In this document: piece by piece, positions 4,330-45,872 of the stretch | How the letters are laid out: each line of letters opens with the position of its first letter | Numbering within the stretch: the stretch's first letter is position 1 | Origin: Reclinomonas americana ATCC 50394 | Lineage: Eukaryota | Reading direction: 5' to 3' | DNA length: 64,000 nucleotides | Assembly: GCA_048213135.1 (NCBI GenBank) | Contig: PS015009.1 | Coordinates: 2,046,001-2,110,000 of the forward strand | Program-made: the position numbers and the translations under genes | The notes under the pieces: model-generated | What the model saw: the letters and a program-made list of their open reading frames with translations, nothing else | Database searches by the model: none | What the model was told of the DNA's origin: nothing

Positions 4330-4357
4330 AGGTAAAATTCAAAAATAAAAAGTCAAA
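4330..4357. repeat. Heptamer tandem array (AARTMAA class), single arm
   Basis: AGGTAAA ATTCAAA AATAAAA AGTCAAA. Confidence 0.55.
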
Positions 4358-4423
4358 AACCACAACTGTCTCTTTTATAAATATAGTAAAGATTTTGGAA
4401 AGCGGTGGCTGCTGCGGATCCGG

Positions 4424-5463: not shown

Positions 5464-5547
5464 AAGTCAAAACTCAAAAGTAAAAAGTAAAAAAGGCAGG
5501 TAAGCCGAAGTCCCTCATTTTTAATTTTGACTTTTTATTTTTTACTT
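5464..5547. repeat. Inverted pair of heptamer tandem arrays (AARTMAA class), about 25-bp spacer
   Basis: Left arm AAGTCAA AACTCAA AAGTAAA AAGTAAA. Reverse complement of right arm AAGTAAA AAATAAA AAGTCAA AATTAAA. Right arm touches the murA stop. Confidence 0.75.
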
Positions 5548-28491: not shown

Positions 28492-29838
28492 ATGTACCAG
28501 AAAAACCCGGCCATAGGAAAAGGTATTGATTGGTTAATGGTGTTCTTTTACGGCATCCTCGTGATCATTGGCCTCATTTGTATTTTCTCCGTGGAATACA
28601 AGAGTACAGACAATGTGATGCAAACCCTGACGGGTTTTAAAAAGAATTACAGCAAACAACTTTTCTATTTCGGCGCATGCTGTCTGCTGGCCATATTTAT
28701 TTTACTTACCGACAGTAAATTGTTTACCGCTACTGCCAACCTTTCTTACCTGGTAGGGATATTACTCATACTCGCTACCTTTGTGCTGGGCAAAGAGATC
28801 AAGGGTTCCAAAAGCTGGATACCGCTCGGTTTCATGAACCTGCAACCGGTAGAGCTATGTAAAATATTTACCGCCCTGGCGTTGTCGAAATACCTTTCCA
28901 TGCAGGAAACGGATTTCCGCAAACCCAAATCACAACTCATTGCCGCCGCGCTGGCTTTCACTCCCGCTGCGTTTTCCATATTGCAGGGCGAGACCGGGCT
29001 GGCGCTGGTGTATTTCTCCTTCCTTATACCCATGTACCGCGAAGGATTGCCGGGAGGTTATCTTGTATTGGGGGTTTGTATGGCGGCGTTACTCGTAGTG
29101 TCGTTACTGTTCACAGCCAAAACGCTCATCATCGCTTTTTCGGCCATCATGCTGTTTTGTCTTTATTATTTCCGCCGGCAGATCCGCCGCAACAGCCGGC
29201 TGCTGGTACTCATCCTGGGCATATGGGGTTTTTGCAGTGCCTTCGTTGGCTTTGGTATACCTTTCTTCTTTAAGCATGTATTGAAACCTTACCAGGCTGA
29301 TCGTATCTTCAGCATGGTGGGTGTTGATAATCCTTTTGCCGATAAAACCGTGGTGCTGGATGAGGCTGCGCTGAAGGAGAAAGAAAAAAAATCAAAGCAG
29401 CAGGATTACAACGTAAAACAATCCAAGATCGCCATAGGCTCAGGCGGCTTTGCAGGAAAGGGATTCCTGAAAGGAACACAAACGCAGGGCGACTTTGTTC
29501 CGGAACAGCACACCGATTTTATTTTTACTTCCGTAGGCGAAAACTTCGGCTTCCTGGGCACAACTGCCGTTATGCTGCTCTACCTCTGTTTCCTGCTGCG
29601 CATCGTCGTCATCGCCGAACGGCAGCGAAGTACTTTCAGCCGTGTATATGCGTATTCGGTAGCCGGCATACTCTTCTTTCACGTTTCGGTGAATATATGT
29701 GTAACCATTGGCCTGGCCCCGGTAATCGGGATTACTTTACCACTTATGAGTTACGGCGGATCTTCCCTGCTCACCTTTACCATATTGTTCTTTATCCTCA
29801 TCAAGCTGGATGCTGATCGGCAGATGGTACTTCGTTAA
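28492..29838 (+). CDS. rodA: Rod shape-determining protein RodA (SEDS)
   Basis: QPVELCK, QSKIAIGSGG, PEQHTDFIF, LPLMSYGGSS. Confidence 0.96.
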   Translation: MYQKNPAIGKGIDWLMVFFYGILVIIGLICIFSVEYKSTDNVMQTLTGFKKNYSKQLFYFGACCLLAIFILLTDSKLFTATANLSYLVGILLILATFVLGKEIKGSKSWIPLGFMNLQPVELCKIFTALALSKYLSMQETDFRKPKSQLIAAALAFTPAAFSILQGETGLALVYFSFLIPMYREGLPGGYLVLGVCMAALLVVSLLFTAKTLIIAFSAIMLFCLYYFRRQIRRNSRLLVLILGIWGFCSAFVGFGIPFFFKHVLKPYQADRIFSMVGVDNPFADKTVVLDEAALKEKEKKSKQQDYNVKQSKIAIGSGGFAGKGFLKGTQTQGDFVPEQHTDFIFTSVGENFGFLGTTAVMLLYLCFLLRIVVIAERQRSTFSRVYAYSVAGILFFHVSVNICVTIGLAPVIGITLPLMSYGGSSLLTFTILFFILIKLDADRQMVLR

Positions 29839-29840
29839 TC

Positions 29841-29865
29841 AATTACGAATTCCAAATTACGAATC
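29841..29865 (+). repeat. Left arm of perfect 25-bp inverted repeat
   Basis: AATTACGAATTCCAAATTACGAATC, exact reverse complement of 30331-30355. Confidence 0.95.
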
Positions 29866-29963
29866 GTGAGGGTTTTAGTCGGGGAGAAAATGACACTATT
29901 TAAAGAGGGAAAAACGTTTGCTGTAAATTTTAACGCACTTAAATTACTGCCATAATCATTGTT

Positions 29964-30332
29964 ATGAAGCAGGAAAATGTGATCGTTGAAAAGAGTTATG
30001 CTTTTGCTATACGGATTATAAAACTGTATCAGTATTTATGTACCCAGAGGAGAGAGTTCGTATTGAGCAAACAAATACTGCGTTCAGGTACTTCGATAGG
30101 AGCAAATGTAGAAGAAGCTATTGGTGGACAGACAACAAAGGATTTTTTCATGAAGCTGACCATTGCGTATAAAGAAGCGAGAAAAACACTTTACTGGATA
30201 AGGTTATTGACCGATACGGGCTATATTACTCCGGCTGAAAGCAAAAGCATTTTGGGTGATGCAGATGAAATCCTTAGAATTTTAGGGTCTATCCAGAAAA
30301 CAACACGAAATTTGCACCTGAAAAATTCGTGA
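29964..30332 (+). CDS. Four-helix-bundle protein (23S rRNA IVP / bAvd-like family)
   Basis: 'KSYAFA.RI..LY', 'LSKQILRSGTSIGANVEEA', 'KDF..KL.IA.KEA..T.YW..LL' family motifs. Confidence 0.92.
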   Translation: MKQENVIVEKSYAFAIRIIKLYQYLCTQRREFVLSKQILRSGTSIGANVEEAIGGQTTKDFFMKLTIAYKEARKTLYWIRLLTDTGYITPAESKSILGDADEILRILGSIQKTTRNLHLKNS

Positions 30333-30355
30333 TTCGTAATTTGGAATTCGTAATT
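30331..30355 (-). repeat. Right arm of perfect 25-bp inverted repeat (heptamer array extends about 30323-30362)
   Basis: GATTCGTAATTTGGAATTCGTAATT; overlaps the TGA of the four-helix-bundle gene. Confidence 0.95.
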
Positions 30356-30372
30356 CGTAATTTGCATTCATA

Positions 30373-31116
30373 ATGAAAATCATCCCCCTCAGCGAAGGCG
30401 CTTTCACCATCGATCAAACCAAAGTGTTTATTCCTTTTGATGTAGAGAAGGACGACCTGCAGCAAAGAACCAAAGGAAGCCTGCTGGTAGAAGTACAGCC
30501 CTTTGCCATTATAACCTCAAAAGATATACTGGTACTGGACGCGGGATTGGGATTCAGTAACCCCGACGGGACTTTGCAGATACACCAGAACCTGCTTAAT
30601 AATGGGATCAATCCTATGGACGTTACCAAAGTATTGATGAGCCATCTTCATAAGGATCATTCCGGCGGCATTGCCCGGGAGGATAAGATTTTGCAAAAGA
30701 GTTTTCTCAGCTTTCCCAATGCGAAGTATTACGTGAATCGCGATGAATTTGATTTCGCTATCGCTAAAGGGAAACCTTCTTACACACCGGATGAATTCAA
30801 AATACTGGGAGATATCGACAACGTGGTGTTTACACATGGCGATGGTGTTATCGATGATTATATCCGGTACGAAGTCAGCGGGGCGCACTGCCCTTACCAC
30901 CAGGTGTTCTGGATAGAAGAGGATGGAGAAAAAATATTTTTCGGAGGTGATGTGGCCCCGCAACTGCAGCAAATGAAAAGCCGTTTTGTAGCCAAGTATG
31001 ATTACGACGGAAAAAAATGTATGGAGCTACGCCAGCAATGGTGGGCACAGGGAGAGCAGGAAAAGTGGACCTTTCTTTTTTATCATGATATCAAAACGCC
31101 GGTGTTTTCCTTTTAG
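30373..31116 (+). CDS. MBL-fold metallo-hydrolase
   Basis: SHLHKDH motif, GAH.PYHQ, GGD, FYHD. Confidence 0.9.
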   Translation: MKIIPLSEGAFTIDQTKVFIPFDVEKDDLQQRTKGSLLVEVQPFAIITSKDILVLDAGLGFSNPDGTLQIHQNLLNNGINPMDVTKVLMSHLHKDHSGGIAREDKILQKSFLSFPNAKYYVNRDEFDFAIAKGKPSYTPDEFKILGDIDNVVFTHGDGVIDDYIRYEVSGAHCPYHQVFWIEEDGEKIFFGGDVAPQLQQMKSRFVAKYDYDGKKCMELRQQWWAQGEQEKWTFLFYHDIKTPVFSF

Positions 31117-31215
31117 GAATGAAGGAATAAAAAAATGAAGGAATGAAGGAATGATGGAATGATGGAATTGAAGCGAAGACAATATTCAATTTTCAATAAT
31201 CCATATTTCAATACT
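31117..31215. repeat. Octamer tandem array (GAATGAWG x6) with a weak opposing arm
   Basis: GAATGAAG GAATAAAA AAATGAAG GAATGAAG GAATGATG GAATGATG starts at the base after the TAG; TCAAT-rich array at 31185-31215. Confidence 0.75.
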
Positions 31216-31278
31216 CACTTACCGGCCCAAAAAAGCCGCTACACATGGCAGCGGCTGATCTGTTAAGTAAGGGTAATA

Positions 31279-31843: not shown

Positions 31844-31917
31844 AATTTGAAAATTTGAAAATTAGACAATTTGAAAATTCCGATGACTTCATTTTCACAT
31901 CGTCACATTTTCACATT
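31844..31917. repeat. Inverted pair of octamer tandem arrays (AATKTGAA class) filling the atpF-atpH gap
   Basis: Left AATTTGAA AATTTGAA AATTAGAC AATTTGAA; right ATTTTCAC ATCGTCAC ATTTTCAC ATT. Confidence 0.85.
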
Positions 31918-34053: not shown

Positions 34054-34171
34054 GATGTGACAATTTGAAAATTTGAAGATGTGACAATTGAGTCTGCTGG
34101 TGGACTTAATAAAAGGGCAAAGTTCGTTATAAATGGAAGCTTACCGGTGAAAGGGCCAATTCGCACATTTA
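34054..34171. repeat. Octamer tandem array (RATKTGAM) with a short opposing arm
   Basis: GATGTGAC AATTTGAA AATTTGAA GATGTGAC AATT; right arm AATTCGCACATTT abuts the ABC-gene stop. Confidence 0.7.
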
Positions 34172-45811: not shown

Positions 45812-45872
45812 TTAATATGCAAATGTGCGAATTATCCTATCCGCACATTTGCATATTAACAGATTTGCACAT
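45812..45872. repeat. Perfect 18-bp inverted repeat composed of octamer units
   Basis: TTAATATGCAAATGTGCG / CGCACATTTGCATATTAA, continuing CAGATTTG CACAT; no U-tract. Confidence 0.85.

Follow-up and report, generated by a model that had tools for sequence, protein, structure and literature searches.

A four-helix-bundle gene bracketed by inverted heptamer arrays downstream of rodA, and the recurrence of this arrangement in many bacterial phyla

Introduction

The closest described counterparts of the element reported here are the intervening sequences (IVSs) of 23S rRNA that carry a gene of the S23p type. As described in the available part of one account of the Coxiella IVS (PMC4990558), the insert is closed by terminal inverted repeats that form a stem of 28 bp, the S23p open reading frame (ORF) is preceded by three tandem heptamers, GACAGAT, RNase III cuts inside the stem in vitro, the 5' cut falling at the first repeat, and the GC content is 36%, against 42.5% for the genome; the same text cites a Xanthomonas S23p structure as a homopentameric toroid and an older idea in which the ORF of the IVS is a component of mobility. 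Here we describe an element of comparable design, in which a 122-amino acid four-helix-bundle gene is enclosed by inverted arrays of heptamer units between rodA and a metallo-beta-lactamase (MBL)-fold gene. It lies in a stretch of 64 000 nucleotides, referred to below as the window (positions 2 046 001 to 2 110 000 of contig PS015009.1, in assembly GCA_048213135.1 of Reclinomonas americana ATCC 50394), and was first remarked on in an earlier note made from the letters of the window alone.

Two other kinds of element share parts of this layout. In the REP/REPIN–RAYT systems, a single small gene stands between two inverted copies of a short repeat, and intergenic DNA contains many further inverted pairs of this repeat without a gene; the repeat sequence differs from one protein clade to the next, and transmission is mainly vertical. 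Elements of the Correia/ERIC type are small inverted-repeat inserts in the intergenic parts of operons, the transcript hairpins of which are cut by RNase III or RNase E; they contain no gene and have target-site duplications.

Arrays of 7-nt units have also been reported as repeats in their own right, including GGGAATC arrays in Xanthomonas, 70–75 as convergent pairs (PMC4692102), TAACTGA arrays in Beggiatoaceae, Cyanobacteria and Bacteroidetes (PMC4679880) and orphan heptamer repeats such as GGGGA(C/T)T in Anabaena, whose position is conserved between related genomes (PMC4692102, PMC4679880). The available parts of these two papers state the role of the GGGAATC and TAACTGA arrays to be unknown, and a word search of the same text gave no mention of S23, helix bundle or intervening sequence. 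The family PF05635, to which the gene described here belongs, is recorded in insertions of both 16S and 23S rRNA in the available part of a paper on the candidate phyla radiation, and is equated with Avd-like proteins in that of PMC10053308. In the literature that we covered, which lay outside subscription journals, PF05635 genes outside rRNA were not linked to flanking heptamer arrays, and the repeat strings were not found.

Results

The cassette in the window

The packaging of this gene recurs around its relatives in many bacterial phyla and is, on the evidence of their sequences, not a local oddity. In the window (Table 1), the left arm, AATTACGAATTCCAAATTACGAATC, begins two bases beyond the TAA of rodA (29836–29838), and the right arm, GATTCGTAATTTGGAATTCGTAATT (30331–30355), is its exact reverse complement over 25 nt and overlaps the TGA stop codon (30330–30332) of the 122-residue ORF, the sole ORF inside the element. 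The earlier note had described a perfect 25-bp inverted repeat at these positions, built from heptamer units and with a variant unit mirrored between the arms; the sequence and a repeat search bear this out, the variant being AATTCCA on the left and TGGAATT on the right, and the coordinates hold. The repeat extends imperfectly to 38 nt with 84% complementarity (29841–29878 and 30318–30355), and the cassette pair is the longest of 20 inverted repeats in the window with arms of at least 17 nt no more than 1500 nt apart. A two-unit motif, allowing up to two mismatches, occurs seven times in the window, six of them within the two arms, against 0.65 expected, and a count of seven was reached in none of 100 shuffles.

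Table 1. Features at the junction of rodA and the MBL-fold gene, in window coordinates.
Feature	Position	Strand	Basis
rodA (FtsW/RodA/SpoVE family)	28492..29838	+	Pfam PF01098, E 1.6e-68; ORF list
Left arm, 3.5 heptamer units, forward polarity (AATTACG, AATTCCA, AATTACG and AATC)	29841..29865	+	
Spacer or 5' leader, 98 nt, from left arm to start codon	29866..29963	+	
122-amino acid four-helix-bundle gene (PF05635 23S_rRNA_IVP / TIGR02436)	29964..30332	+	Profiles, AlphaFold2 (AF2) model
Right array, 5.6 units of 7 nt, reverse polarity (AATTCGT type)	30324..30364 (tandem repeat, 30324–30362)	+	Tandem Repeats Finder (TRF)
MBL-fold gene	30373..31116	+	Pfam PF00753, E 3e-9; ORF list

The gene ends AAT TCG TGA, so that the first unit of the right array supplies its final codons and stop. 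Because the reverse-polarity units of this array contain TAA or TGA, it gives a stop in all frames within 21 nt, and the ATG of the MBL-fold gene follows 17 nt past the perfect right arm. No sigma-70-like promoter site was found on either strand of the cassette, TANNTTTG, a −7 motif of Bacteroidetes, is absent from the 98-nt leader, and no terminator-like site on the plus strand follows either rodA or the ORF, the sole one lying within rodA. No Rfam family matched positions 29500–30700 at E values up to 1.

The window holds a single PF05635 gene and a single cassette, with one further match to the two-unit motif; gene-less copies of the cassette unit are absent from it, and its one solo hairpin (5464–5547) is made of another unit. 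The earlier note had seen neither a transposase nor a target-site duplication here, and both a Pfam scan of the neighbouring ORFs, which gave no transposase gene adjacent to the cassette, and reading of the flanks (ttcgttaatc and cgtaatttgc), which gave no visible duplication, agree with it. An integron gene cassette was ruled out, as there are two inverted arrays rather than one attC and no integrase family among the 11 ORFs scanned between 23752 and 35974.

Recurrence of the arrays around relatives

An alignment of 57 relatives (A1) was used to scan 185 579 species genomes, in which at least 560 relatives were found, and the best 80 loci were kept, making 81 with the window. The search patterns were confined to the protein, and the flanks of the relatives were therefore not selected for. 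The 80 loci come from Bacteroidota and from bins labelled Planctomycetota, Verrucomicrobiota, Acidobacteriota, Chloroflexota, Gemmatimonadota, Proteobacteria and candidate-phyla-radiation groups. Strict arrays, defined as AATT every 7 nt for three or more units, stand on both flanks of the gene in 50 of the 81 loci (47 of the 73 with full flanks), compared with one of 1177 control ORFs of 90–200 amino acids and two of 700 longer ones from the same DNA. Whether relatives are flanked by inverted repeats more often than other genes was a comparison proposed in the earlier note, and it comes out strongly on the side of the relatives. At almost every locus, the best inverted repeat spanning the gene is built from one heptamer, AATTACG upstream and CGTAATT downstream, with variants AATTAGG, AATTAAG and AATTACT, and the termini AATTACGAAT...ATTCGTAATT are conserved across phyla. 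TRF gave 149 arrays of period 7 or 14 no farther than 200 nt from a four-helix-bundle gene, a zone that makes up 5.3% of the bases, and 181 in the rest of the sequence.

The two arms of a locus also match each other. In 62 of 73 loci, the complementarity between the locus's own arms was higher than in 95% of 212 shifted-position controls, and mean arm scores were 19.5 for own pairs, 14.4 for cross-locus pairs and 8.3 for controls; the cross-locus pairs score high because the heptamer unit is shared, and own pairs nevertheless score above them (Wilcoxon p = 7e-7). Variant units also follow a mirrored order in the two arms to a greater extent than in shuffles (222 against 193.7 ± 11.1; five of 500 shuffles as high). 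Array lengths centre on 4–5 units and spread up to 41 copies; 4–5 units would fit one unit per subunit of a pentamer, which we offer as a lead only. Very long arrays (34, 41, 15 and 28.6 copies) were seen at L019 4077–4615, L082 1128–1471, L083 1328–1433 and L096 23470–23669, respectively, and one long array on a Planktothrix plasmid overlaps an annotated 64-amino acid 'hypothetical protein' that is probably a repeat-derived annotation artefact.

The position of the arrays relative to the reading frames is equally regular. The distance from the end of the left array to the ATG has a median of 9.5 nt, and the array often runs directly into the gene (...AATTACGAATT ATG AAA); on the other side, 30 of 66 loci have the first AATT of the right array starting 9 nt ahead of the end of the ORF, giving genes that end AAT TCG TAA. 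The 98-nt leader of the window is unusually long by this measure, and the window feature is a typical, slightly loose copy of the cassette, with 98 nt in place of about 10 nt. In compact copies, the TAA of the upstream host gene lies within the first unit and the ATG of the downstream host gene directly after the last. Inspection of the units themselves shows that the forward ones are free of stop codons in all frames and that the reverse ones give a TAA in each frame within 21 nt. Among 76 loci, the arrays were forward upstream and reverse downstream in 34, both forward in one, both reverse in one and in the opposite arrangement in none, the rest being mixed or array-less.

The encoded protein

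The earlier note had assigned the gene to the IVP/Avd-like four-helix-bundle family, and profiles and predicted structure both place it there. The protein matches PF05635 (E 4.3e-26; 91.6 bits, cut-off 33.8) and TIGR02436 (E 8.6e-29; 100 bits, cut-off 24), and its AF2 model (pLDDT 93.5) consists of four helices, at residues 2–27, 34–53, 58–84 and 90–121. The model superposes on the Protein Data Bank entries 2RLD (TM 0.89, rmsd 0.5) and 2GSC (TM 0.78), of which the former was also matched by sequence (E 4.9e-33) and the latter was reached with the alignment profile; both entries contain five chains. Superposition on Avd gave TM 0.72–0.75 (4DWL, and 8UB7, in which Avd lies within the ribonucleoprotein of a diversity-generating retroelement (DGR), as it does in 8UB8 and 8UBE). 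The protein thus shares a fold with Avd, and its close structural relatives are deposited with five chains, but it scores only 22.1 bits with the bAvd model PF22296, below the cut-off of 40, and the A1 profile gave no match to 4DWL at E values up to 10. A further difference from the Avd of DGRs is that no reverse transcriptase lies beside the window gene, nor did any of 146 neighbouring ORFs of relatives match a reverse-transcriptase or transposase family, with an integrase fragment in one; template and variable repeats were not searched for. No PADLOC defence-system model matched the window protein.

The PF05635 family is very large: in a search of protein sequences, 7998 of the 8000 scored candidates were relatives, the best 98% and the second 75% identical to the window protein. 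Going by the names of the closest homologues, the host of the window gene would be Bacteroidota-like. Two of 50 697 phage records matched the four-helix-bundle search. Seventeen longer fused proteins, with partners such as HsdR pieces, PIN and ribonucleotide reductase, were set aside, since they look like read-through or insertion products and include no telling fusion; to judge from the sequences, long PF05635 fusions may arise by read-through across the stop-free forward array. Five clusters (P0125, P0128, P0130, P0132 and P0133) contain proteins of about 268 amino acids with a PIN domain (PF01850) and PF05635.

Other clades carry other heptamers

In order to look beyond the subfamily of the window, plasmids were searched by tblastn, which gave 31 records, all below 60% identity and mostly cyanobacterial. 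For the 14 of these that were examined (31–53% identity), the flanks were read by eye, and inverted arrays of other heptamers were found on both sides of the gene in 11. The unit was of the ACTGGTC type on a Euhalothece plasmid, of the CGGAGAG type on a Treponema plasmid, with a 41-copy array upstream, ATTAGTG on a Bernardetia plasmid, AATTCAA, AATTCGC and GTCGGAG on plasmids of Nostoc flagelliforme, Nostoc N6 and N. punctiforme, AATCCCC/AATCGTA on the Planktothrix plasmid, GATGAAG on that of Chlorohelix, ATTTTAG on that of Gloeocapsa, AATTAGG on that of Monoglobus and AATTCGT, in opposite polarity, on that of Nostoc C052. The arrays of the other three plasmids (Anabaena cylindrica, Chondrinema and Pseudanabaena) are less clear. 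Contexts of the plasmid cassettes include DISARM, type I restriction-modification, cas1/cas2 and a Tn7-like element. Units of the TAACTGA/TAACTCG type flank the gene at L036.

The earlier note had also suggested testing whether the repeat unit co-varies with protein clade, and this proved to be so. On a protein tree of 88 rows, from which six rows with broken or short ORFs had been excluded, AATTA-type and other units change eight times, compared with 17.3 in shuffles (none of 500 as low), and the plasmid relatives have other heptamers. Within the close subfamily, unit subtypes change 21 times as against 24.7 (4 of 500 as low), which is weakly significant; we discounted this fine-scale match as evidence of recognition, as it is confounded by linkage. 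More generally, because gene and arrays are linked, the match of unit to clade shows that they travel together and not that the protein reads the arrays.

Gene-less hairpins

The DNA fetched around the relatives contained 92 pairs of inverted arrays no more than 1500 nt apart, some loci contributing several. Of these pairs, 61 enclose a four-helix-bundle gene, 26 enclose nothing and five enclose another ORF. The empty pairs have the form (AATTACG)n–short loop–(CGTAATT)n and are wedged between co-directional genes. A decayed cassette is found at L049 9606–9807, immediately ahead of an intact copy: its inverted AATTAAG arrays surround no more than the final third of a four-helix-bundle ORF, and it looks like a transitional form between complete cassettes and solo hairpins. 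Of 71 arrays located over 300 nt from all family genes detected, 35 have the same unit subtype as the local cassette, compared with 16.7 ± 3.6 in shuffles (none of 2000 as high).

On the Planktothrix plasmid, the cassette units recur at several further places in the same DISARM operon, some within annotated genes. On the Gloeocapsa plasmid (L095 9870–10088), the annotated DUF1156 gene ahead of the cassette contains three heptamer arrays, of AATCAAA, ATTTTAG and AATCAAA.

Operon context

In the window, the cassette follows mreB, mreC, a 177-amino acid ORF (possibly mreD), a PBP2-type transpeptidase gene and rodA, in that order, and the genes from mreB to rodA and the MBL-fold gene are all on the plus strand. 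By simple ORF calling, 69 of 73 loci have an upstream neighbour that is co-directional with the cassette and 52 of 73 a downstream neighbour that is so, the median gaps being 54 and 51 nt, respectively. Junctions occupied by cassettes include trpD/trpC, nuoE/nuoF, mreB/mreC, flgF/flgG, efflux membrane-fusion/AcrB-type genes and parts of ABC transporters, and cassettes are very often found within type I restriction-modification operons (hsd genes) or beside Fic, HipA and Schlafen-type genes. As judged from sequence and comparison together, the cassette is read from the transcript of its host operon.

No target-site duplication beyond chance was found in 44 loci: 24 had none, 13 had 1 nt, six had 2 nt and one had 3 nt, compared with 29.1, 9.5, 3.9 and 0.8, and 0.7 for longer ones, in shuffled flank pairs.

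Several individual contexts may be recorded here. A Pyrinomonadaceae bin (L046 8896–11299) has a cassette between mreB and mreC, that is, in the window's type of operon at another junction. Cassettes are common within defence operons, at L085 and L090–L094, and at L004, L019, L022, L031, L040, L042 and L057, the junctions being cas2/cas1, csx2/cas1, drmD/MmeI (DISARM), DUF1156/HEPN, helicase-related/N-6 DNA methylase (L091) and those of hsd genes; this may reflect either a tolerance of insertion or a part played in those systems. The gene for tRNA-guanine transglycosylase (tgt) is the downstream neighbour in L045, L051 and L059, which are labelled as three different phyla, and is co-directional in two of them. 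Paired four-helix-bundle genes, in tandem or within 3 kb, occur at L008 2641–3444, L076 895–1579 and L017 (7705–8058 and 10667–11029); in L076 and L017 each of the two gene copies has its own flanking arrays.

Residence in the host

Six syntenic groups were found, such as Oxidored_FMN–[cassette]–AMP-ligase in four Flavobacterium species, in which the flanking proteins are 63–99% identical. Within these groups the synonymous divergence (dS) is mostly 1 or more, the ratio of nonsynonymous to synonymous divergence (dN/dS) is about 0.03–0.14 and the arrays are retained. On these codon comparisons we take the cassette protein to be under strong purifying selection; an unconstrained 30-bp tract would not survive such divergence. 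Because the cassette has been inherited vertically at syntenic sites at which dS is saturated, it has been in residence for a long time and is not actively hopping. Among the fetched loci, all syntenic matches carry the cassette too; none of these loci has an orthologue of the rodA or the MBL-fold gene of the window.

The earlier note had found the gene richer in AT than rodA, and the GC content is indeed 37.9% for the ORF and 36.2% for the cassette, against 47.4% for rodA and 47.5% for the window. This is, however, a trait of the family that tracks the host rather than a sign of recent arrival. The GC content of the ORF is below that of its flanks in 76 of 77 loci and yet follows it (r = 0.90, slope 0.73), which indicates that the genes are old residents and not the product of bin contamination. 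The AT-rich unit is kept even in hosts of at least 60% GC (L021, L029, L031 and L080).

Predicted pairing of the arms

The minimum-energy fold of positions 29800–30400 pairs the two arms (−156.6 kcal/mol, z −3.96), and none of 20 shuffles folded to as low an energy. When whole cassettes are folded, the arms are paired in 44 of 71 loci; among the 26 loci with an inverted-repeat score of 20 or more, this is so for 22. The proposal of the earlier note, that the arms would pair in the transcript and loop out the whole ORF, is in part supported, by the predicted fold of the window and of these relatives, but a comparison of G:U with A:C mismatches between the arms, taken up below, gives no signal specific to RNA.

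Discussion

Comparison with described systems

The earlier note had likened the element to an IVS, and in anatomy the likeness holds. Like the S23p-type IVSs of Leptospira and Coxiella, as far as the available part of PMC4990558 describes them, the window element places a PF05635 ORF in the loop of a terminal-repeat stem of about 25–28 bp, has tandem heptamers beside the ORF, is about 430–520 nt long, has a GC content below that of its host and lies within a longer host transcript. The likeness stops at the location, as the host transcript in the window is that of a protein-coding operon (rodA and the MBL-fold gene) and not rRNA, and Rfam gave no match. It differs from the Coxiella IVS, on the same partial account, in its heptamer (AATTACG rather than GACAGAT) and in its ORF, which in window-type copies is intact and under purifying selection, whereas that of Coxiella is reported to be decaying.

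The resemblance to REP/REPIN–RAYT systems lies in the single flanked gene, the gene-less pairs seen in related loci, the repeats peculiar to each clade and the mostly vertical inheritance; in contrast to these systems, the cassette protein is a PF05635 four-helix bundle and not an HUH/Y1 (IS200-like) transposase, the repeat is a tandem heptamer array and not a single imperfect palindrome of about 35 nt, and the gene is embedded co-directionally in host operons. Correia/ERIC-type elements are similar in being inserts bounded by inverted repeats and co-transcribed with operons, but the loop of the cassette is filled by a conserved ORF, and there is no duplication beyond chance. With the orphan heptanucleotide repeats, as far as the available text of the two papers goes, the cassette shares intergenic arrays of 7-nt units that often form convergent inverted pairs and are conserved in position.

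Interpretation and its alternatives

The comparative facts given above are, at the level of sequence, secure, and from them we infer the following mechanism. In our judgement the feature is probably one copy of a widespread, conserved and promoterless cassette, the arms of which pair in the transcript, loop out the ORF and are probably recognized by the encoded, putatively pentameric protein. In the mre–rodA transcript, the arms would form a stem of at least 25 bp with the ORF looped out, which is the design of an S23p-type IVS of 23S rRNA, and by virtue of this same design the stem would be a likely site of processing by RNase III. A processing site of this kind would allow the insert to lie within an operon, or within rRNA, while doing little harm, and we regard the stem, by this analogy, as the likeliest processing and tolerance device. 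The encoded protein, a pentameric ring in its solved relatives and a structural relative of the RNA-binding Avd, would read the heptamer arrays, both in its own cassette and in solo hairpins. That the arrays are recognized by this protein appears to us the most likely arrangement, since a clade-specific unit that is kept against host GC over saturated divergence calls for a sequence-specific reader, and the encoded protein is its sole constant companion. Spread of the cassette, which would be rare, might involve recombination into arrays of its unit that are already in place, or else an RNA intermediate; this is speculative.

A number of observations weigh against this interpretation. The arms are no better than controls in 11 of 73 loci, are unpaired in 27 of 71 whole-cassette folds and are in direct orientation at L026 and L040. 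Among 182 arm mismatches, G:U (29) is not in excess over A:C (34; p = 0.61), so that RNA pairing is not singled out over a constraint at the level of DNA. The polarity of the arrays is fixed, with 34 of 76 loci in one arrangement and none in its opposite, and pairing alone is therefore an insufficient explanation. Simple co-inheritance of linked DNA would also yield the co-variation of unit and clade, and the best 80 of at least 560 relatives over-represent the subfamily of the window, many of them being metagenome bins. In Coxiella, moreover, S23p is reported, in the available part of PMC4990558, to be decaying and probably not made, with the RNA mattering more, and the protein would therefore be dispensable for that copy.

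The lack of a G:U bias and the fixed polarity stand against a view based on RNA only, and a DNA-level system resembling REPIN–RAYT is still a serious rival, although we rate it as clearly the less likely of the two. Under this alternative, the cassette would be a mobile element of the REP/RAYT kind or akin to a miniature inverted-repeat transposable element, in which the arrays are terminal inverted repeats recognized on DNA, as hairpin or duplex, either by the four-helix-bundle protein or by an enzyme of the host. Complete cassettes would then be autonomous, solo hairpins non-autonomous and the RNA stem a by-product. In favour of such an element are termini conserved across phyla, units specific to clades and solo hairpins sharing the subtype of the local cassette, and the great diversity of insertion contexts, the copies on conjugative and mobilizable plasmids and a protein tree at odds with host phyla are consistent with it, as are arm mismatches free of G:U bias. 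It is harder to reconcile with target-site duplications that stay within chance in 44 loci, with the presence of a single integrase fragment and no transposase or reverse-transcriptase family in 146 neighbouring ORFs, or with a 64-kb window that contains one cassette of the unit. We know of no strand-transfer catalytic fold in a helical bundle of 120 amino acids. Cassettes that stay syntenic across species with saturated dS and whose GC has drifted towards that of the host do not look like a hopping element, and the fact that 69 of 73 loci have them co-directional behind a host gene suggests that they depend on the transcript of the host.

Alternatively, the arrays might be fixed, immobile cis-regulatory adaptors, that is, signals for translational coupling or insulation, perhaps read by a host factor, that allow a useful small gene to stand between two cistrons. 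The close fit of the arrays to reading frames would be accounted for in this way: host stop and start codons abut the arrays, the cassette gene starts next to the left array and terminates within the right one, forward units are stop-free in all frames, and reverse units present TAA in every frame within 21 nt. The positions between genes for subunits of one complex, the long-lived synteny and the purifying selection on the protein also agree with it. An adaptor would, however, explain neither a heptamer that travels with the gene across phyla and into hosts of at least 60% GC, nor gene-less hairpins of the same unit, nor the same design inside 23S rRNA, where the flanks are untranslated (available part of PMC4990558), and we consider it improbable. 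That the repeat is a chance slippage product of AT-rich intergenic DNA, unrelated to the gene, has in its favour the other intergenic arrays of 7–8 nt in the window (5464–5547, 31115–31217, 31844–31917 and 34058–34089), but a motif count that none of 100 shuffles matched, two-sided arrays at 50 of 81 loci but at just 1 of 1177 and 2 of 700 control ORFs, and a fixed position relative to start and stop codons leave it with a negligible probability; shuffles, control ORFs and shifted-position controls together refute a chance origin of the inverted repeat.

Wider implications

From the sequence comparisons we infer a link between orphan heptamer arrays and PF05635 genes, and it is tempting to extend it. 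Tentatively, and with rather less confidence than we place in the cassette interpretation itself, PF05635 proteins might be the missing trans-acting partners of bacterial heptanucleotide repeats (STRR-like in cyanobacteria, GGGAATC in Xanthomonas, TAACTGA in Beggiatoaceae, AATTACG in Bacteroidota and others). Each clade of pentameric rings would read its own unit; the array-bracketed gene would be the 'master' and the gene-less hairpins in operons its dependants, as in REPIN–RAYT, and the S23p IVS of rRNA would be the same cassette landed in rRNA. The pattern would put three decades-old puzzles on one footing, namely the function of PF05635, the origin of ORF-bearing 23S IVSs and the intergenic heptamer arrays, and renders all three testable by simple experiments, namely protein–repeat binding and the mapping of RNA ends with and without RNase III. 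The insert lives between the cistrons of essential and defence operons (mreB/mreC, nuoE/nuoF, trpD/trpC, type I restriction-modification, DISARM and cas1/cas2) with no sequence sign of breakage, which matters for the annotation of operons and for the interpretation of 'accessory' genes in defence islands.

Other repeats in the window

The genome of the window seems rich in arrays of 7–8-nt units. A gene-less hairpin at 5464–5547, formed by two inverted heptamer arrays (AAGTAAA and TTTTTAC type) with a 24-nt loop, sits between aroA and a lipocalin-like gene on the minus strand. The segment 5525–5547 is 91% complementary over 23 nt to a third array, at 4334–4359, 1166 nt away, and these two arrays bracket the lipocalin-like gene and gmk. 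The AAGTAAA unit also flanks the four-helix-bundle gene on the Anabaena cylindrica plasmid (L085). On the 3' side of the MBL-fold gene, at 31115–31217, lie 7.2 copies of AGGAATGA and 5.3 copies of CAATATT; partly complementary octamer arrays, AATTTGAA and CATTTTCA, occupy the gap between atpF and atpH (31844–31917), and four copies of TGAAAATT lie upstream of atpB (34058–34089). Finally, a 21-nt palindrome with 95% complementarity and a 6-nt loop (TTAATATGCAAATGTGCGAAT and ATCCGCACATTTGCATATTAA) is found at 45812–45859.

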